64,000 nt of DNA from positions 2,416 through 66,415 of the forward strand of contig JACQDK010000073.1 of assembly GCA_016201135.1 (NCBI GenBank), in the 5' to 3' direction. The position numbers were made by a program, and so were the translations under genes. How positions within the stretch are numbered: the stretch's first letter is position 1; every line of letters begins with the position of its first letter. A model generated the notes under the pieces. That model was not told the DNA's origin and made no database searches. It saw only the letters and a list, made by a program, of their open reading frames with translations. Of the stretch, positions 1 to 13,715 are shown piece after piece. This DNA is from Actinomycetota bacterium (GTDB lineage Bacteria; Actinomycetota; UBA4738; HRBIN12).

Positions 1-308
1 TTGCCAAGGCCGTCGATGACGGCGATGCCATGGTCCTGCAGAATCTCCCGGGCCTCTGCTGTGGTCTTGCCGGCGATGAGCAAGAGCGGCAGGTCCGGAC
101 GGGCTTGCGCGTAGTGGACGAGCTGCCACGCGGTGGCTGGGTTGGCGTCGCGTTTGAACTCGACGGCGACTGGGGCTCGGTTGTCGGCGAAGCGAAGGAT
201 CGCGTCGATGGCACGATCGGCCCCGCCCGGCTCGGCGATCACGGTCAGGCCCGGGATCTCCCGTAGGATGCGGAGGGCCTCCGCCTCGAAGGGACCCTCG
301 ATCTTCAC
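1..308 (-). CDS. hypothetical protein, 5' portion only (gene continues beyond window start); possible PD-(D/E)xK-like motif
   Basis: Minus-strand reading frame from a GTG near 306-308: VKIEGPFEAEALRILREIPGLTVIAEPGGADRAIDAILRFADNRAPVAVEFKRD...IAGKTTAEAREILQDHGIAVIDGLGN. G/C-rich third codon positions. Absent from the ORF track because it is truncated by the window edge. Confidence 0.4.
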   Translation of the reverse strand, partial: MKIEGPFEAEALRILREIPGLTVIAEPGGADRAIDAILRFADNRAPVAVEFKRDANPATAWQLVHYAQARPDLPLLLIAGKTTAEAREILQDHGIAVIDGLG

Positions 309-357
309 AAGTTCTCTCTTATTCACAACGACTGTGAATATAGCTGATTCTGTGAAT
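304..357. promoter_or_regulatory. nested inverted repeat operator candidate: TTCACA (304-309, 322-327) facing TGTGAA (333-338, 352-357)
   Basis: Seen directly: cTTCACAAgttctctcttaTTCACAAcgacTGTGAAtatagctgattcTGTGAAtc. The inner unit ATTCACA-ACGAC-TGTGAAT is a perfect 7-5-7 palindrome. It lies in the relatively AT-rich gap between the helicase stop (436) and the start of the next minus-strand gene (308) and overlaps a TATATT -10-like hexamer on the minus strand. Confidence 0.45.
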
Positions 358-435
358 CTTGACACGGGAAAGCATAGAGTCGCTCTGTCCAGGGCGTACC
401 TGCGGGGAGCCGGGCGGCACTCTGCAGGCCACAGG

Positions 436-2808
436 TCACACCGATCGCCCAGACCGGGTGGCTTTCGTGTCGAATCCGAGGCTCGCGAACCCGGGAAGAC
501 GCTTGGCATGCATGCGGGCGAGCACGGGCACACCCGCGTCGACGTAGTCGTGGACCTCGACCTTGGTCTTCTCGTCGGTCGGGCGCAGCACCCGTCCGAC
601 GTACTGGACGATCCTGCCCTTGAAGGCGATCGGGAAGGCGAGGAACAGCGTGTCGAGCGACGGGCAGTCGAATCCTTCGCCGAGGAAGCTGCCGGTGGCG
701 ATGAGGAGGAGGCCGCCGGCAGGGCCACGAGCCGTGAGCTCTGCGATCACCGCCGATCGGGCCTTCTTGCCCATCCCGCCCTGGAGCACGAGCGGCGAGA
801 GACCAAGCCGTCCGAGCTCGGCGACGATCAGGTCGATGTGCTCTGTCCACTGGGTGAGCACGAGGCAGTTCCGACCGTTGGCGACAGCAGCAGCGATGTC
901 CGCGCAGATCGCTCTTGTCCGTTCGGCGTCCGCCACGAGTGCGCGGAACAGCTCCTGGATGCCGAGGTCAGCGGCCTCGGGGATCGTGAGCTTCGTCCGA
1001 TGGACCACGAGCTCGAGCCTGTGAGGCATGGCCTCCGTCGCCGTCGTGATCCGGTGGCGGATCGGTCCGCAATACATGGTGATGAGCCCTTGGAGGCCGT
1101 CGCGCCGGTACGGCGTGGCGGTGAGCCCGAGCCATCGCCGGACCGGGATCTGGCGAACGCAGCGCTCGAAGGTGACCGCAGGCACATGGTGACATTCGTC
1201 GACGACCACCAGTCCGTAACCAGCGGTGAGCTCCGCGATGTCCTCCCGCCGGGCCAGGCTCTGCGCCATGGCGATGTCGACGATGCCTCTCGTTCGGTTG
1301 CGTCCCCCGCCGAGCTGACCGATCGCCTTCGGGTCGAGGCCCAGGTGGGTCGCGAGCCGATCGCGCCACTGCTCGACGAGGGGCTTGCGATCGACGATCA
1401 CCAGCGTCGGACGGTCGTAGTGGGCAATGAGCGCACACGCGATGACCGTCTTGCCGGTGCCGGGAGGAGCGACCAGGACCCCCTGGTCGTTGCAGGCGAT
1501 GGCATCACATGCCAGTTGCTGCTCGGCGGTGAGCCGCGCCCGGAGGCGGAAGCCGACCGGCTCCGGGTCGCGGCACTCGTCGTGGACGCCGAGCCGGCTC
1601 CCCGCCTCGGCGACGATCGAGGCGGCCTGTTCCCGAAGGCCCCTGGGCAACAGCAATCGGTCGAGGGTCTCGCCGTAGCAGCGGATGAACCGCGGGGTGT
1701 TCCAGGTGGAGAGGCGGAGCCGTTCCTTCTCGTAGTACTGGGGATTGTGCAGCGACGCCAGATGCTTGAGGGCCGACAGCAGGGCCGGCGGGATGCCGCT
1801 TCGCTCAACGGCCAGCATCGCACCGGCCCAGGCGTGAATCGTCTCGGGAGGCGCCGGAGCGGGCATCGACGATCGAGGTCGCCGATACGTGGCATCATCG
1901 GGCCCGGCGCCAACCGGCCCGATCGTCTCGACCATGTGCGCCAGCGTCTCCCGCGCCAGCCGCGGGAGGCCGGCGAGATACGCCCACTGGTCCTTGACGG
2001 GTTCGAGCGTCGTCGGGTCGAGGAAGACGGTGGTTCCTTTCTTGCGGCACTGGCCTTGCAGCGGCAGGGCGATGAGGTTGCCGAACGACCCTCTCGGCAT
2101 GAAGTCCTGAGTCGGAAACAGCCGATCGTAGCTAGCGAGGTCGAGCTCGCCGCGTTCGGTCATCGCCTCCCGGAGCAGGTGCACGCCGAGCTGGCGAGCT
2201 GAGGTCGCGGGCACCGGGCCGCTTAACAAGACCCAGACATGGGCACCCTCATCCGAGCGCGACCGCTCGAGTGCCGCAGGGACACCGGCGGCCCGAGCGG
2301 CATCGAGGTAGGCAAGGGCGTCGAGCACCCACCCGGTGCCGTCGAAGTCACACACCAGAAGACGGCAGGCATCGCCCCGGAGCAGCGGGTACAACCCGGC
2401 GTGAATCTCGCCGGCGAGATGGGATGCGATCACCTGGTCGGAGAAGGCCAGGTACTCGCGTCCTTGCTTGCGAGCATTGACCCAGCCACCTCGGACCGCC
2501 GGGCCCCAGCCGGCCTTGCCGGTGCGCTCGTTCTCCCACCTGAGCGCGTACACGTCCTCGCGCCCGGCAAACAGCGATCGGAACAGCGCCACCTTGGCTT
2601 GTTGAGACGACGCCTGGCCAACAGACGCCAACCTGACATCGGCGCCCGGCTCCTGGTCCGGGAACAGGCTGGGCTTCCATGGCTCCACCGGGGCGGTTCG
2701 GGCGGGGTCGTCAAGACCCAACAGGTCGCGCAAACGCCTGTTCTCGGCTTGAAGCGCCGCGAGTTGGCGGCCGAGCTCGGCGATCGAGGGAGAAGATGAC
2801 TCGCTCAC
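436..2808 (-). CDS. archaeo-eukaryotic primase-polymerase (PrimPol-like) domain fused to a DEAH-type SF2 helicase; architecture reminiscent of defence/conflict-system primase-helicase proteins (TOTE-like)
   Basis: 790 aa. N-terminal coiled coil IAELGRQLAALQAENRRLRDLL. PrimPol motifs LVCDFDG (DxD), GAHVWVLL (sxH-like) and GNLIALPLQG. Helicase Walker A LVAPPGTGKT, motif II VVVDECHH and TAT-like LGLTATP. GTG start preceded by GGGGAGA. Confidence 0.8.
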   Translation of the reverse strand: MSESSSPSIAELGRQLAALQAENRRLRDLLGLDDPARTAPVEPWKPSLFPDQEPGADVRLASVGQASSQQAKVALFRSLFAGREDVYALRWENERTGKAGWGPAVRGGWVNARKQGREYLAFSDQVIASHLAGEIHAGLYPLLRGDACRLLVCDFDGTGWVLDALAYLDAARAAGVPAALERSRSDEGAHVWVLLSGPVPATSARQLGVHLLREAMTERGELDLASYDRLFPTQDFMPRGSFGNLIALPLQGQCRKKGTTVFLDPTTLEPVKDQWAYLAGLPRLARETLAHMVETIGPVGAGPDDATYRRPRSSMPAPAPPETIHAWAGAMLAVERSGIPPALLSALKHLASLHNPQYYEKERLRLSTWNTPRFIRCYGETLDRLLLPRGLREQAASIVAEAGSRLGVHDECRDPEPVGFRLRARLTAEQQLACDAIACNDQGVLVAPPGTGKTVIACALIAHYDRPTLVIVDRKPLVEQWRDRLATHLGLDPKAIGQLGGGRNRTRGIVDIAMAQSLARREDIAELTAGYGLVVVDECHHVPAVTFERCVRQIPVRRWLGLTATPYRRDGLQGLITMYCGPIRHRITTATEAMPHRLELVVHRTKLTIPEAADLGIQELFRALVADAERTRAICADIAAAVANGRNCLVLTQWTEHIDLIVAELGRLGLSPLVLQGGMGKKARSAVIAELTARGPAGGLLLIATGSFLGEGFDCPSLDTLFLAFPIAFKGRIVQYVGRVLRPTDEKTKVEVHDYVDAGVPVLARMHAKRLPGFASLGFDTKATRSGRSV

Positions 2809-3086
2809 GTCGGTCTCCCCATGACATCCGGGTGATCGCGGTGTCCGGAGTCAGTCGTCATCCTGCATCTCCGCTTGCCCCTGGCCCCGGCGAACAGGTT
2901 GAGTATGCCGCCAAGGCGCTCCACCCTGTCCCTGAAGTACTCGTACATTGCCCGCAGGCGCTTTCGCAGGTGTTCGTCGTCGGGGGCGAACGTCGCTCGT
3001 CGCCGTTGGGTGGAGCGTGCCTGTCCGACCAGGGCGCAGGCCATTCTCTCTGAGACCCCGAAGCGCCGGCAAAGGTGGGGGGCCAC
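2805..3086 (-). pseudogene. IS3-family transposase OrfB, N-terminal 93-aa fragment only
   Basis: HTH_21-like N-terminus (RRFGVSERMACALVGQ), then the ORF terminates. No integrase/DDE region follows. Confidence 0.65.
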
Positions 3087-3174
3087 CCGTCTGCAGCGTT
3101 CGGGGCTCAGAAGTTTCCCCGAGCCACCTCCTTTAGCATGTCGATGTCAAGCGCCTGGTCGGCGACGATCTTCT

Positions 3175-3426
3175 TCAGGCGGGTGTTCTCTTCTGCAGGT
3201 TCTTCAGCACCACGACGTCTTCTGGGCGCATGGAGTGGTACTGGTGCTTCCAGCGATGGTAGGTCTGGACCGAGATCTCCAGGCGACGCATCACCTCGGG
3301 GAGCTCGATGCCCTCCTCGAGCAGGCACTCGGCCTCACGCAGCTTGCGGATGACCTGCTCGGGGGTGTGGCGCTTCCTCTTCATGAGGGTCACCTCCTGC
3401 CCCTTCGGGGCAGTCGTGACTCTCAT
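3175..3426 (-). CDS. IS3-family transposase OrfA (HTH)
   Basis: MKRKRHTPEQVIRKLREAE...LEISVQTYHRWK is typical of IS3 OrfA. Probable start at the internal M (MKRKRH). Confidence 0.7.
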   Translation of the reverse strand: MRVTTAPKGQEVTLMKRKRHTPEQVIRKLREAECLLEEGIELPEVMRRLEISVQTYHRWKHQYHSMRPEDVVVLKNLQKRTPA

Positions 3427-3724
3427 AGCACGCGTGGACTCGTTTACGGGGGTCAGTTACGGTCAGCCGGACCCCGGCGCGCAGAGTTTGGTAGGCGGGG
3501 GGCCGGGTGCCTCCGTTCGCCAGCCACGTTCCGGCCGTCTGCAGATCGCGGTACCCGAGGGCGGGTTAGATCGAACCTTTCAAGGCAGCGGTAGCCGCTG
3601 CCGGAGGCGCATCAGGCGTCGCAGGTCTGGTCCAAGGCCCCCTTGGGGCACGAACCTGCGCACCGTCGACGCGGCGCTCCCGTCGGCGCAAGGGGCCTCA
3701 GGCGACGCGACCCCACGCCCTCGC

Positions 3725-3787
3725 GCTCACCCAGACACGCGGGCCCGGCTCACCACGGTTCGTACGCTGGAACCTTCGCCTCCGCAA
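3725..3787. repeat. dispersed repeat, copy 1 (truncated relative to copy 2)
   Basis: GCTCACCCAGACACGCGGGCCCGGCTCACCACGGTTCGTACGCTGGAACCTTCGCCTCCGC matches 27666..27748 over about 60 nt. It is followed by unusually AT-rich AAATTACACGAATGTAGTTTAGATAGG. Lies about 125 nt downstream of the minus-strand gene ending at 3913. Confidence 0.6.
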
Positions 3788-3912
3788 ATTACACGAATGT
3801 AGTTTAGATAGGAGTGCCTGTACGCTGCGGCCGAACACCTCGTGGACGCCTGCCGTCGAACTCTCGGGTTGGCGCATGAAACGTCTCTCGGCCCGTACGC
3901 TCGACTTCTGGA

Positions 3913-4119
3913 TCAGGGAGTAGGCTGCTCCTGCGCAGCGGGACCCTCTTGGGAATGAAGGCGGCATCGCGTCACTATCAGGTTCCCCTCCCCCAGAAAC
4001 TCCCGGGGAAACACCCACTCGCACCGGATGCAGACCCGGTCGCCTGCTCTGAGCCACCCACGTGTCTCGGGGAGATCCCGGGCCCGGGCGAGCTCCGAAC
4101 CGCAGCACCCGCAGATCAT
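3913..4119 (-). CDS. small zinc-ribbon-like protein (CxxC...CxxC), hypothetical
   Basis: 68 aa, MICGCCGSELARARDLPETRGWLRAGDRVCIRCEW. G/C-rich third positions. Its ATG overlaps the stop of the upstream CBS-domain ORF (ATGA at 4116-4119). GGAGGAG about 12 nt upstream. Confidence 0.35.
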   Translation of the reverse strand: MICGCCGSELARARDLPETRGWLRAGDRVCIRCEWVFPREFLGEGNLIVTRCRLHSQEGPAAQEQPTP

Positions 4120-7639: not shown

Positions 7640-8962
7640 TCAGGCCGAGACGAGCCCGGCCATCGTCTCCATCACCGGCTGGCGTTTGTCCTCCGGCAGC
7701 TCGGATACGGACGTCATCATCGCCTTCATGACCTCCCGTCTTGCGTCCTCCGGAAGCTCGCCGAGACACGCCGCGTTCGAGCGCATCACCGCATCCCGAG
7801 ACTCGGCGGGCAACTCCGCAAGCACCCCAACCATCGACTCCAGGAAGCGGAGCCGGCGTGCTTCTCCGGCCCGCACCAGACCCTCCAGCATCCGGCGCAT
7901 GTTGCCGCGCCTCTGCGACTCGGGTTGTACCGCAAGGACTGCGACGCGCCGCCTTACGAACTCCCGTCGGCGGTCGTCCTCGAGGTCGCAAACCCGTCCT
8001 GTCATGATGCGCGCGGTCGCCCTCCACTCGTTGCGCACCGCCGCAGCCCGCAGCGGAACGGCCAGAAGGAAACCCGCCCCTACCAGCGAGAGCCCCATGG
8101 CGAACCCGGCCGGGTTCGAGCCGGGATGGAACCACAGCCATTGGTTCATGAACGAGGACGCGAGACCGTAGATCATCCCGACGAAGCTCGCGTAGAGCAG
8201 GAGCTGCTTCGCGATCGTCTGCCACCAGCGCTCGTCGCCCTCCCGGATCGCCACCTTGAGCAGCGGACGTGCGATCACGAGCAGGACGAAGGCTCCGCCG
8301 ACGATCGACCAGGTCACCCACAGCTTGGGATAGATCGTGGTGAACGGGATCGCACCCATGAACGCGTTGAGGAGCCCGTACATCAGGATCCCCAATCCCA
8401 GGAACAGGACGCTCTCCCGCAGGGCGATCGCCCACCACGAGGTCGCCCAGGGCTCCCCGAGGAGCCGGCCCCGGCGCATCAGCATCTTGAGCATGCCCCG
8501 TACCGGGATGATCGTGAGGATCCCCCAGAAGGCGAGCGTGAAGCCCCACCAGTTCCAGGCCGGAAGCCTGAATTCCGGCTGGAAGGCGAGCATCAGGCCG
8601 AGCCCGGTGAGGATGACGCCCTTCACCAGGTTCACGCCGCCGGGGAGGATCAGGTCGGGGCGGAAACCGAGCCCCGGTAGGTAGTCACCCTGCGCCTGCG
8701 GCAGGGCGAGAACGGCGGCGGAGAGCCAGAACAGCCCGAGGCCCACCAGCAGCAGGGTGGCCTGGGTCGAGAGGGGCTCGATGTTCGACGACAACACCGA
8801 GCCGATGTAGAGGAACAACGGCATGAACACGACGCCGGTGATGAACACCGGGGTCTTGTAGGCGAGGTAGGCCGGCCTTCCCGCCCACGGGTACAGCATC
8901 AACGCGACCACGGTGGACACCAGGACGACGTCCACGTAGGTGCCGATCGAAAGCGGCTGCAT
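7640..8962 (-). CDS. polytopic membrane protein with C-terminal ELPE(E/D)xR repeat region
   Basis: 440 aa. About 8 hydrophobic helices, then LAELPAESRDAVMRSNAAC / LGELPEDARREVMKAMMTS / VSELPEDKRQPVMETMAGL. Paralog at 23446..24459. Confidence 0.6.
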   Translation of the reverse strand: MQPLSIGTYVDVVLVSTVVALMLYPWAGRPAYLAYKTPVFITGVVFMPLFLYIGSVLSSNIEPLSTQATLLLVGLGLFWLSAAVLALPQAQGDYLPGLGFRPDLILPGGVNLVKGVILTGLGLMLAFQPEFRLPAWNWWGFTLAFWGILTIIPVRGMLKMLMRRGRLLGEPWATSWWAIALRESVLFLGLGILMYGLLNAFMGAIPFTTIYPKLWVTWSIVGGAFVLLVIARPLLKVAIREGDERWWQTIAKQLLLYASFVGMIYGLASSFMNQWLWFHPGSNPAGFAMGLSLVGAGFLLAVPLRAAAVRNEWRATARIMTGRVCDLEDDRRREFVRRRVAVLAVQPESQRRGNMRRMLEGLVRAGEARRLRFLESMVGVLAELPAESRDAVMRSNAACLGELPEDARREVMKAMMTSVSELPEDKRQPVMETMAGLVSA

Positions 8963-8974
8963 CCCCTCACCTCC

Positions 8975-9117
8975 TCAGAACGCTCGAAGCAGCCTGTACG
9001 CGAGGTACAGCCCTGCCGACGTGACGGCCACGCCGATGAGGGCCAGATACACGAACGCGAGGACCAGAACGGGCGCGCTCACGTCGAAACCGAAGGCAGC
9101 CAGGATGTTCACGATCC
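8975..9117 (-). CDS. small membrane peptide (putative)
   Basis: VNILAAFGFDVSAPVLVLAFVYLALIGVAVTSAGLYLAYRLLRAF. GTG start overlapping the end of the preceding small ORF. Weak support. Confidence 0.25.
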
Positions 9118-12071: not shown

Positions 12072-13715
12072 TCACGCGGCGCAGCACGAGAGCATGGCCA
12101 CGTCTTTGCTGAACGTCTGCGAAGCGAGCTTCAGACCTTCCGCGATCGTGAGGTACGGGTGGAAGGTCTCCGCCACTTCCTTCACCGTCAAGCGGAACTT
12201 GATCGCGAGCACTGCCGACTGGATCACCTCACCGGCGCTCTCGCCGAGGATCGAGACTCCGAGGATCTCTTCCGTCGATGCGTCTGCCACGACCTTGATC
12301 AACCCCCTCGTCTCGCGGTTCACGATCGCCCGCGGGACCGATGACAGCGGGAGGACCGACGTCTTCACAGCCCGGCCTTGCTCCTCGGCCTGCGCCTCCG
12401 TCAGACCCGCCGACGCGATCTGGGGGCTGGTGAACGTGACCCTGGGCAGGGCCCGGAGATCCACGGTTCGGGAGGCGCCCTTCAGGGCGTTCTCGGCCGC
12501 CAGGTTGCCCTCGTAGGCGGAGACGTAGACGAATTGGGGCGCGGGCGTGCAGTCGCCGGCGGCGAAGACCCGCGGGTTCGTGGTCCGCAGGTGCTCGTCC
12601 ACCACGATGGCCCTACGCGGATCGAGCTGCACACCGGCCTCCTCCAGGCCCATCCCGGCCGTGTTCGGGATGCGGCCCGTCGCCACCAGCACCTGGTCGA
12701 CGGGGAACTCCCGGAGGGCCCCATCCACCTCCGCGTACACGATCCGCTTCCCGTCAGTCGCCGTCACCTTCACGATCCTGGCCGGGGCGAGGACCTCCGC
12801 ACCCTGGTCGCGGAGGATCCCGGTGAAGGCCTCGGAGACCTCGGGCTCCTCGAAGGGAGCGATCCGCTCGAGGACGTCGAAGAAGAACACCTTCGTCCCG
12901 AGGTGAAGGAAGAACTGGCCGAGCTCGAGGCCGATGGCGTTTGCCCCGATCACCGCCATCGACCCGGGCAGCTCCTTCAGGTCGAGCGCCGTCGTGCTGG
13001 TGAGGTAGCCAGCGTCCTGCAGCCCCTCGATCGGCGGCACCGCGGGGGATGCGCCGGTCGCGACCAGGTACGCGCCGGCCGTGATGGTACGGCCGTCGAC
13101 CGAGAGCGTGTCCGGACCGACGAACTCGGCATGGCCCGGGATCAGCTCGAAGCCATAGGCGTCCACGAGGTCGATGTACTTCTCCTGCCGCATCACCTCG
13201 ACGAGCTCGTCCTTCTGGGCGACGAGCGCGGCGAGGTCCGCCTTGCCGGCGGAGGTCTCCACGCCCGCGAAGTCCTGGTGGCCTGCCTGGAAGCAGACCT
13301 CGCCCGCCCGAAGCAGCGCCTTGGAGGGCACGCATCCCACGTTAACGCAGGTGCCCCCCACGGTCCCGTGCTCGACGAGCGCCACCCGCGCGCCCTGATC
13401 GCGAGCCTTGATGGCAGCCGCGAACGCCGCCGAGCCGGCCCCGATGATGAGCAGGTCGTACTCGGAGGCGTCGACCCTGCCAGCCCTCGAGCCCTCCGTC
13501 TCGAGCGCCTCGACCTTGCCGGGGCCGTAGCCCGAGTCCCGCACGGCCTCGGCGAAGCGGTCGACGCTGATGTCCTCGCCGACAGCGAAGACGGCCTCGC
13601 CCTTCCGCCAGTCCGCCGCCACCTCGCGCGCTCCGGCCCACTCGAGCGCTCTCGCAACGTGAAGATTGCAGGAGTCACAGGTCATGCCGGCCACTTCCAT
13701 CCGAAGCTTCGTCAT
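12072..13715 (-). CDS. merA: mercuric reductase MerA (N-terminal HMA domain + FAD/NAD(P)H disulfide oxidoreductase)
   Basis: GMTCDSC HMA motif, GGTCVNVGCVPSK redox-active disulfide, and the C-terminal SCCAA Cys pair. Confidence 0.9.
   Translation of the reverse strand: MTKLRMEVAGMTCDSCNLHVARALEWAGAREVAADWRKGEAVFAVGEDISVDRFAEAVRDSGYGPGKVEALETEGSRAGRVDASEYDLLIIGAGSAAFAAAIKARDQGARVALVEHGTVGGTCVNVGCVPSKALLRAGEVCFQAGHQDFAGVETSAGKADLAALVAQKDELVEVMRQEKYIDLVDAYGFELIPGHAEFVGPDTLSVDGRTITAGAYLVATGASPAVPPIEGLQDAGYLTSTTALDLKELPGSMAVIGANAIGLELGQFFLHLGTKVFFFDVLERIAPFEEPEVSEAFTGILRDQGAEVLAPARIVKVTATDGKRIVYAEVDGALREFPVDQVLVATGRIPNTAGMGLEEAGVQLDPRRAIVVDEHLRTTNPRVFAAGDCTPAPQFVYVSAYEGNLAAENALKGASRTVDLRALPRVTFTSPQIASAGLTEAQAEEQGRAVKTSVLPLSSVPRAIVNRETRGLIKVVADASTEEILGVSILGESAGEVIQSAVLAIKFRLTVKEVAETFHPYLTIAEGLKLASQTFSKDVAMLSCCAA

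Follow-up and report, generated by a model that had tools for sequence, protein, structure and literature searches.

A probable IS-excision enhancer relative, solitary on horizontally mobile DNA, in an Actinomycetota bacterium

The IS-excision enhancer (IEE) of Escherichia coli O157:H7 (ECs1305; UniProt A0A0H3JF09; Kusumoto 2011; Calvo 2023, PMC9943667) is the sole experimentally studied member of its family and acts on insertion sequences (ISs), not on phages. Biochemical and genetic work (PMC9943667; bioRxiv 10.1101/2023.06.07.543989) describes it as a DNA-dependent ATPase with no unwinding activity and a Mn2+-dependent polymerase capable of microhomology end-joining, with a helicase domain reported to resemble XPB II, UvsW and RadD. 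In vitro, 3′ overhangs are joined without a transposase; in vivo, the phenotype requires an active one. The in vivo mechanism is disputed between end-joining after a break and strand switching during copy-out, and IEE homologues in Actinobacteria have already been noted in the literature. TOTE conflict systems take their name from TPR, OB, TBP and Effector (Aravind, Iyer & Burroughs 2022, cited via PMC12458937). PMC9943667 and the bioRxiv preprint on IEE do not mention TOTE, nor does PMC12458937 mention IEE.

We analysed a 64-kb stretch of DNA from an Actinomycetota bacterium (hereafter the window), where an ORF on the minus strand at 436..2808, with a GTG start, encodes a 790-aa protein. A sequence-only reading had proposed a primase-polymerase joined to an SF2 DEAH helicase; Pfam confirms this architecture, and the four motifs cited are all present (LVCDFDG, aa 151-157; GAHVWVLL, 188-195; LVAPPGTGKT, 445-454; VVVDECHH, 534-541). 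The AEP (PrimPol-type) polymerase domain at aa 72-290 (1939..2595, minus strand) matches PF22548, AEP-TOTE (E 1.1e-74; 251 bits, where the cut-off is 27) and lies inside the AEP superfamily. It also matches the PADLOC PrimPol model PDLC01465 (E 4e-84) and PDB entries 7nqd and 7nqf (E 7e-5 and 1e-4), to which 7NQE, a Prim-Pol AEP (Chandler et al.), is a related entry. Its metal ligands are D154, D156 and D228, with H190 and Y140 as further active-site positions identified by mapping onto IEE. The SF2 helicase-like ATPase core at aa 426-760 (529..1533, minus) carries the Walker A lysine K453, a DEAH box at 537-540 that reads D537-E538-C539-H540, and the arginine finger R739. Here Pfam reports ResIII (aa 426-568, E 8.6e-23), with DEAD also matching, and Helicase_C (aa 641-742); sequence matches in the PDB are XPBII (2e-20), Rad25 and RadD, and fold matches found by Foldseek are XPB, UvsW and RadD.

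Foldseek aligned ~480-500 columns with the whole of archaeal XPB II (435-442 aa) and T4 UvsW. Together with conservation among homologues, this suggests that the middle domain at aa ~320-425 (1534..1851, minus) probably corresponds to the domain found N-terminal to the motor in XPB and UvsW. The coiled coil anticipated at the N-terminus appears in the AlphaFold2 model as a leucine-zipper-like helix at aa 9-30 (2719..2784, minus), in which L19, E22, N23 and L26 are invariant across 64 homologues. This helix is probably an oligomerisation element.

BLASTP against the IEE of E. coli O157:H7 EDL933 (WP_000233452.1, 786 aa) gave 38% identity over query residues 15-779 and subject residues 9-775 (E 2e-164). 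We took WP_000233452.1 to be IEE because it bears Y128, D142, D144, H178, D216, K451 and R735 at exactly the published IEE positions. Y140, D154, D156, H190 and D228 of the 790-aa protein map, in order, to IEE Y128, D142, D144, H178 and D216, and K453, D537-E538-C539-H540 and R739 to IEE K451, DECH 534-537 and R735; all of these positions in the 790-aa protein are invariant in 123 homologues. E. coli IEE itself matches PF22548 with an E-value of 1.7e-98. The 790-aa protein is a full-length relative of IEE, and we consider it fairly likely to be a member of the IEE family with an IEE-like role. One argument against is that function would have to be carried over across phyla at 38% identity. The clade of the 790-aa protein is Actinobacterial/Chloroflexota and, unlike IEE, has no 4-Cys insertion between AEP strands (the Cys count in that region is 0 in 121 of 123 sequences), so that its AEP region contains no Cys-cluster zinc-binding element.

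Fusions of an AEP to a helicase are common replicases of mobile elements, and this general point would favour a role as the primase-helicase that replicates an integrated plasmid or phage. However, replicative primase-helicases join an AEP to a hexameric helicase of the SF3, DnaB or MCM type, and the 790-aa protein has an XPB-like SF2 domain instead. The absence of unwinding activity in IEE, the missing zinc-binding element and the failure to find conserved replication, partition or structural genes near members of the family all argue in the same direction, and we regard this alternative as extremely unlikely. The sequence-only reading had likewise set a replicative role aside, which agrees with the patchy distribution and mobile contexts of the family.

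The neighbourhoods of 81 homologue loci were surveyed by ORF-similarity clustering, Pfam counts on 150 random flank ORFs (69 loci) and inspection of gene-called loci; two GC3-based gene callers were noisy, and the flank survey therefore relied on these three sources. No conserved partner emerged, with no neighbour family present in more than 9 of 81 loci. The biggest neighbour cluster, a tyrosine integrase, was found in 9/81 at scattered positions, and no Pfam family occurred more than three times among the 150 sampled genes. Homologues sit on plasmids or near integrases, excisionase-type HTH proteins, toxin-antitoxin genes, HNH, Fic and IS elements. The gene family is thus patchily distributed and travels alone in variable contexts. 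Only 7 of the 81 loci (0.98 Mb of flank) have an IS3-type transposase less than 10 kb from the homologue, so there is no specific co-localisation with ISs, and IS3 enrichment is not supported. In the 64-kb window itself we found no tRNA, Rfam match or GC anomaly, and nine tblastn queries, two tyrosine recombinases and seven transposases (two IS3, IS30, IS630, IS5, IS66, IS110), gave no match; an IS3 remnant, described below, is the only sign of mobile DNA there.

An independent downstream gene is represented by its 5′ part, 102 codons long, on the minus strand at 1..308. An alpha-beta-beta-beta-alpha-beta core with D...(D/E)xK assigns its N-domain to the PD-(D/E)xK superfamily, as had been suspected from its motif, and the complete product is a probable ~345-aa winged-helix DNA-binding protein with a nuclease-fold N-domain. 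Identity as an AbiEi-type antitoxin was rejected for want of evidence (BLASTP against an AbiEi_1 protein, E 1.3; no Pfam match). The four-half-site operator that had been described as guarding its promoter is present at 304..356 (no strand assigned), with half-sites TTCACA at 304 and 322 and TGTGAA at 333 and 351, arranged concentrically around position 330. The 64-kb window has 12 TTCACA/TGTGAA hexamers, four of which cluster here. The operator overlaps a sigma-70-like promoter at 337..365 (minus strand; -35 GTGTCA at 365-360, 17-nt spacer, -10 TATATT at 342-337), the sole such site in 1..4000, where 0.2 would be expected by chance. The layout TTCACA-N11-ATTCACA-N5-TGTGAAT-N11-nGTGAA recurs, with different spacers, upstream of homologues of the downstream gene in three other loci (L019, L084 and L085). 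An RNA hairpin or terminator was considered for this element and rejected: its spacers lack complementarity, and the z-score of -1.4 for the fold is not significant. The operator belongs to the downstream gene's own promoter and is conserved together with that gene, whose product likely represses it. This downstream family adjoins an IEE-like gene in only one of 81 other loci and is also found without one; gene and operator are a unit separate from the 790-aa gene.

These observations bear on a second reading, in which the 790-aa protein serves as effector in a system for defence or conflict, whether of TOTE type or as a stand-alone anti-phage gene, directing its AEP-helicase against invading nucleic acid with the adjacent PD-(D/E)xK gene as nuclease partner. 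The TOTE label that had been given to the protein is correct as a name: PF22548 is so called, as are homologues P0036, P0052 and P0111 in NCBI. PADLOC returned a strong match to its CRISPR-associated PrimPol model, the closest one, together with matches to helicase components of restriction systems; homologues occur among HipA, PIN, PemK, HNH, Fic, AbiE and integrase genes, and the downstream gene does have a nuclease fold. Yet PADLOC matched this PrimPol component without matching any whole-system model, and the nuclease-fold gene is a rare neighbour. Neither a TPR-OB (cold-shock domain) fusion gene nor a TBP-domain gene was present at 3.4-12 kb of the window, in gene-called loci L001 and L088-L092 or among the top flank families of the 81 loci, and TPR, cold-shock and TBP were likewise missing from the 25 families listed for the 150 sampled flank genes, a list that may leave out families matched by one gene only. 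The only family member studied experimentally targets ISs rather than phages, and we consider a defence effector unlikely. The sequence-only reading had joined gene, partner, operator and IS3 copy into a single candidate defence module that looked horizontally acquired. Horizontal mobility and variable presence of the 790-aa gene hold up; the module does not, as its supposed parts do not travel together, and an anti-phage role sits poorly with the homology to IEE. The gene is horizontally mobile and most likely acts in conflict between host and transposons, not in defence against phages; a host-transposon conflict or end-joining enzyme is the better founded proposal because the characterised homologue is IEE.

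The truncated IS3 copy noticed upstream of the gene is real. The remnant spans 2901..3470 on the minus strand, its outer (left) end near 3470 being approximate, and was delimited by HTH_Tnp_1, tblastn and direct reading of a frameshift. Its orfA (3175..3426) matches HTH_Tnp_1 (Pfam, E 9e-9) and, as read from the sequence, is frameshifted and continues to 3107 in another frame; the first ~50-60 codons of orfB remain inside ORF 2805..3086. The 5′ end is retained, and the DDE catalytic domain and right end are missing. In tblastn against IS3 transposases, matches to the conceptual OrfAB fragment start at residue 2 and stop at residue 147-162, so that IS homology ends at ~2946-2901, 93-138 bp upstream of the 790-aa gene. 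No second copy of the remnant exists in the 64-kb window. The closest homologues of the 790-aa gene share no DNA homology with it upstream of the start codon and do not place the junction between native and IS sequence. The IS3 remnant is a dead insertion that may now supply transcription into the 790-aa gene, since the stop codon of its truncated ORF and the GTG start of that gene overlap (GTGA).

Analogy with E. coli IEE would make the AEP domain an error-prone, Mn2+-dependent DNA polymerase extending 3′ ends that pair over a few bases of microhomology, and the XPB/UvsW-like SF2 domain a DNA-dependent ATPase that helps to bring two 3′ ends together rather than to unwind duplex. The N-terminal helix could plausibly dimerise the enzyme and so keep the two ends side by side. 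In the cell, the enzyme would partner transposases of copy-out-paste-in families (IS3, IS1, IS30); donor DNA would then be resealed or re-templated and the IS lost, sometimes with flanking DNA. We infer these activities, and a role in IS excision in this organism, from the characterised homologue. A more speculative extension, which we think quite improbable, is that the zipper-like helix (L-x2-E-N-x2-L), not mentioned in the two IEE sources, couples the enzyme to IS3-type transposases through the OrfA/OrfAB leucine zipper, and that the 790-aa gene is transcribed and translationally coupled from the IS-derived unit, possibly as a fossil of an IEE-type deletion or of operon formation. Such pairing, if true, would explain the transposase requirement of IEE. 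Conversely, the enzyme might have no particular transposase link and serve host or island in general break repair or damage tolerance, by microhomology-mediated end joining or gap filling. Transposase-independent end joining by IEE in vitro, the resemblance of the helicase domain to the repair enzymes XPB, RadD and UvsW and the ordinary metabolic genes in many homologue flanks are consistent with this. A patchy, island-associated rather than core-genome distribution and the need for active transposase in vivo argue against it, and general repair is in our view not likely.

The comparison with IEE amounts mainly to a correction of annotation: the proteins that NCBI and Pfam label "TOTE conflict system AEP domain" or just "DEAD/DEAH box helicase" include the IEE family, for which experimental data exist. 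A domain-only AEP search returned ~3,000 clusters (50% identity, E <= 1e-10), the full-length proteins among its best matches being mostly ~780-960 aa, and a full-length search with the 790-aa protein returned more than 6,000 relatives. If IS pruning is general among these enzymes, they would commonly regulate IS load and the formation of deletions far outside E. coli. Nothing in this window suggests a new mechanism.

Among known systems, DNA polymerase theta, a microhomology-using polymerase with a helicase-like ATPase, and bacterial LigD, which uses microhomology with an AEP polymerase domain, are functional analogies only: the former belongs to a different polymerase family, the latter has no ATPase and carries extra ligase and phosphoesterase domains, and neither is homologous to the 790-aa protein as a whole. 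CRISPR-associated primase-polymerases (CAPPs; NF040561; PDB 7nqd/7nqf) share a related PrimPol-type AEP fold but lack a fused XPB-like ATPase, and the 790-aa protein scores 53.8 bits on NCBIfam NF040561 against a cut-off of 200. The window held no CRISPR-like tandem array, and none of ten ORFs scanned at 3.9-12 kb had a Cas-family Pfam match. TOTE systems share the AEP domain, which falls in the Pfam family named after them, but no TPR-cold-shock fusion or TBP gene lies beside the 790-aa gene or its relatives within the loci surveyed. For aa ~320-790, the best sequence and fold matches are the SF2 repair translocases archaeal XPB-Bax1, T4 UvsW and E. coli RadD. IEE differs in having a shorter counterpart of the Pro/Ala-rich linker at aa ~295-320, besides its Cys insertion and its demonstrated activities. 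The two nevertheless align end to end with the same AEP and helicase architecture and nearly equal lengths (790 and 786 aa), share the N-terminal helix motif LRAENxRL and an XPB/UvsW/RadD-like DEAH ATPase with identical Walker A lysine and arginine finger, and are encoded by solitary genes on horizontally mobile DNA, an SpLE1-like element in the case of E. coli iee.

The minus-strand ORF at 436..2808 encodes a 790-amino-acid protein and carries every motif cited for it in the sequence-only reading. Pfam assigns residues 72-290 to PF22548, "AEP-TOTE" (E 1.1e-74), so the TOTE annotation suggested in that reading was correct, and several homologues carry TOTE-type naming at NCBI as well. ResIII and Helicase_C matches follow at residues 426-568 and 641-742. 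NCBIfam gave only partial, sub-threshold matches (XPB, RadD and the CRISPR-associated PrimPol_Msp, the last scoring 53.8 bits where the cut-off is 200), and PADLOC returned a strong match to its single-protein CRISPR-associated PrimPol model (4e-84), with weaker ones to restriction-system helicase subunits. The AEP domain matches PDB 7nqd/7nqf, whose relative 7NQE is described as a Prim-Pol AEP in the available text of Chandler et al. The C-terminal ~470 residues resemble archaeal XPB II, Rad25, RadD and T4 UvsW, both in sequence and in an AF2 model (pLDDT 75; Foldseek E ~1e-18 to 1e-19).

Searching a plasmid collection with the window protein identified a match in E. coli O157:H7 EDL933, annotated as a 786-aa "DEAD/DEAH box helicase family protein" and encoded after integrase, AlpA and YfjI genes and before ISEc8. 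The protein encoded there is the IS-excision enhancer, IEE: its length is that published for IEE, and Y128, D142, D144, H178, D216, K451 and R735 fall at exactly the published positions. IEE itself matches PF22548 at 1.7e-98. By BLASTP, the window protein is 38% identical to IEE (39% in the plasmid-collection search) over residues 15-779 of the query and 9-775 of the subject (E 2e-164), an alignment that spans the protein from N-terminal helix to C-terminal tail. Aligning 123 homologues showed all residues named catalytic for IEE to be invariant; numbered as in the window protein, they are Y140, D154, D156, H190, D228, K453, D537/E538/H540 and R739. By homology, the window gene almost certainly belongs to the known IEE family. 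The main value of this assignment is that it ties the "TOTE AEP" database label to IEE, which has been studied experimentally.

In the available text of PMC9943667 and bioRxiv 10.1101/2023.06.07.543989, IEE promotes the transposase-dependent excision of IS629 and other IS3, IS1 and IS30 family members; its ATPase activity is DNA-dependent and lost in the K451A variant, with no unwinding seen; and two cellular models are offered, microhomology end-joining of the donor following transposase cleavage, and primer/template switching in the copy-out step. Published accounts of IEE, in the portions available, also place it on an SpLE1-like integrative element and its homologues in many phyla, Actinobacteria included. 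In vitro, they describe the AEP domain as a Mn2+-dependent, error-prone DNA polymerase and the whole protein as joining 3′ overhangs with 4 bp or more of shared homology, for which both domains are required. We think it fairly likely that the window protein works as an IS-excision or microhomology end-joining enzyme.

The full-length window protein has more than 6,000 relatives, and a search with the AEP domain alone yielded 3,026 clusters (50% identity, E <= 1e-10). We examined 81 IEE-type loci, 80 of them in species-representative genomes (Acidimicrobiia, Chloroflexota and Actinomycetes) and one in a metagenome. No ORF family beyond the IEE-like gene was present in more than 9 of them; the commonest neighbour was a tyrosine integrase, with AbiEii/AbiEi and excisionase-type HTH genes next in frequency. 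Among 150 random flank ORFs from 69 loci, 114 different Pfam families were matched, each at most three times, and TPR, cold-shock and TBP families were absent from the 25 listed for this sample. Gene-called loci with Pfam matches contain integrase, HipA/HTH, HNH, Fic, PIN, PemK, HicB, IS110 and arsenic-resistance genes, while plasmid-borne copies lie amid IS30, IS3, IS630 and IS5 elements or beside recombinase trios. On one Burkholderia plasmid (L086) the IEE-like gene is reduced to its AEP half, with IS66 downstream. The earlier view of the gene as horizontally acquired and conflict-related rather than replicative agrees with our own: we judge it non-replicative, horizontally mobile and conflict-related.

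A TOTE system, as defined by Aravind et al. 2022 in the passage quoted in the available text of PMC12458937, combines a TPR-OB protein with a TBP protein and an effector. None of these companions was found beside the window gene or its relatives in the loci examined; thus the TOTE-named domain is present and the other defining features are not, and a TOTE system at the window locus was rejected on these data. Separately, in eight Pseudonocardiales loci (L038, L040, L041, L049, L050, L057, L069 and L076) a conserved gene of ~390-416 aa adjoins the IEE-like gene, lying directly upstream in six (e.g. L057:229-1916; five on the same strand) and elsewhere in two. In four loci it is preceded on the same strand by a ~170-aa gene. 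Neither has a match in Pfam or NCBIfam, and both may be lineage-specific partners.

The window's left end falls within the downstream gene, leaving a fragment of 102 codons (1..308) that is unmatched in the Pfam, NCBIfam and PADLOC profile libraries and represents a rare family (10 matches in a large protein database). Four TTCACA/TGTGAA half-sites at 304-356 cover the spacer and -10 element of a sigma-70-like promoter, the only one in the first 4 kb of the window, and the last half-site overlaps the gene's GTG start. The same layout, TTCACA-N11-ATTCACA-N5-TGTGAAT-N11-nGTGAA, precedes the partner-gene homologues in three further loci (L019, L084 and L085), with differing spacers; of these, L084 and L085 have no IEE-like gene in the vicinity. 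The four-half-site operator is therefore real, as had been proposed, and belongs to the downstream gene, for which it is most simply a predicted autorepression site. The gene pair does not travel together: the partner occurs in just one of the 81 IEE-type loci, L019, with an Mrr-type endonuclease gene in between. The idea that the fusion gene, partner, operator and IS remnant form one module was thus not borne out. In L019 the conserved operator sits in the intergenic region between the partner homologue and this divergent Mrr_cat restriction-endonuclease gene (12584-13660; E 6e-8), and an intact IS3 follows the partner homologue. The L084 homologue (8001-9040, on a 498-kb long-read contig) is broken across three frames, reflecting either a pseudogene or indel errors; given this split, many of the 63-178-aa database homologues are probably pieces of a ~345-aa protein.

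The truncated IS3 copy reported near the start of the IEE-like gene is genuine. Its orfA (3175..3426) encodes an IS3-type HTH recognised by Pfam and, as read from the sequence, is frameshifted just ahead of the conserved ENTRLKK zipper segment, the other frame running on to 3107; an orfB-like frame continues in the ORF at 2805..3086. The conceptual OrfAB is up to 56% identical to IS3 transposases, only through residue 147-162. Homology stops at ~2946-2901, leaving 93-138 bp before the IEE-like start codon, and the remnant lacks the DDE domain and right end. No further IS3 copy was found within the window, nor any GC shift, tRNA or Rfam match, and to the right of the remnant lie ordinary chromosomal genes (CBS, rhodanese, glycogen-debranching-type hydrolase and PIG-L). 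The TGA ending the truncated IS3-derived ORF shares bases with the GTG that starts the IEE-like gene (GTGA, 2805-2810), an overlap that would permit translational coupling as well as read-through from the remnant; a Shine-Dalgarno sequence, GGGGAG, lies 7 nt upstream of this start. An IS3 scrap beside an IS3-excision gene is suggestive, but the adjacency is probably incidental, since IS3-type transposases lie within 10 kb of the homologue in only 7 of the 81 loci. In a Limnocylindrales MAG (L022:8806-11198), the IEE-like gene matches residues 1-715 only and an IS3-type transposase ORF starts 3 bp further on, so an IS3 element seems to have truncated this family member.

E. coli IEE differs from the window-protein clade in carrying a four-cysteine insertion (PACANEWQARICGKPRIKCGDC) that the clade lacks; 121 of the 123 homologues, the window protein included, are Cys-free in this region. 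The insertion (aa ~84-103 of the protein encoded at L082:7866-10226) lies inside the AEP domain, may be a zinc knuckle and is not mentioned in the available text of the IEE papers. The N-terminal helix of the window protein (2719-2784; aa 9-30), with invariant L19, E22, N23 and L26, resembles, over a very short stretch, the leucine-zipper heptads found in IS3 OrfA; the available text of PMC9943667 and bioRxiv 10.1101/2023.06.07.543989 mentions no coiled coil, dimer or, for IEE itself, leucine zipper. The helix motif L-[RQ]-A-E-N-x-R-L is common to E. coli IEE and the window-protein clade, and the XPB/RadD/UvsW-like resemblance of the C-terminal part, reported for IEE in the text available, is likewise found in the window protein.
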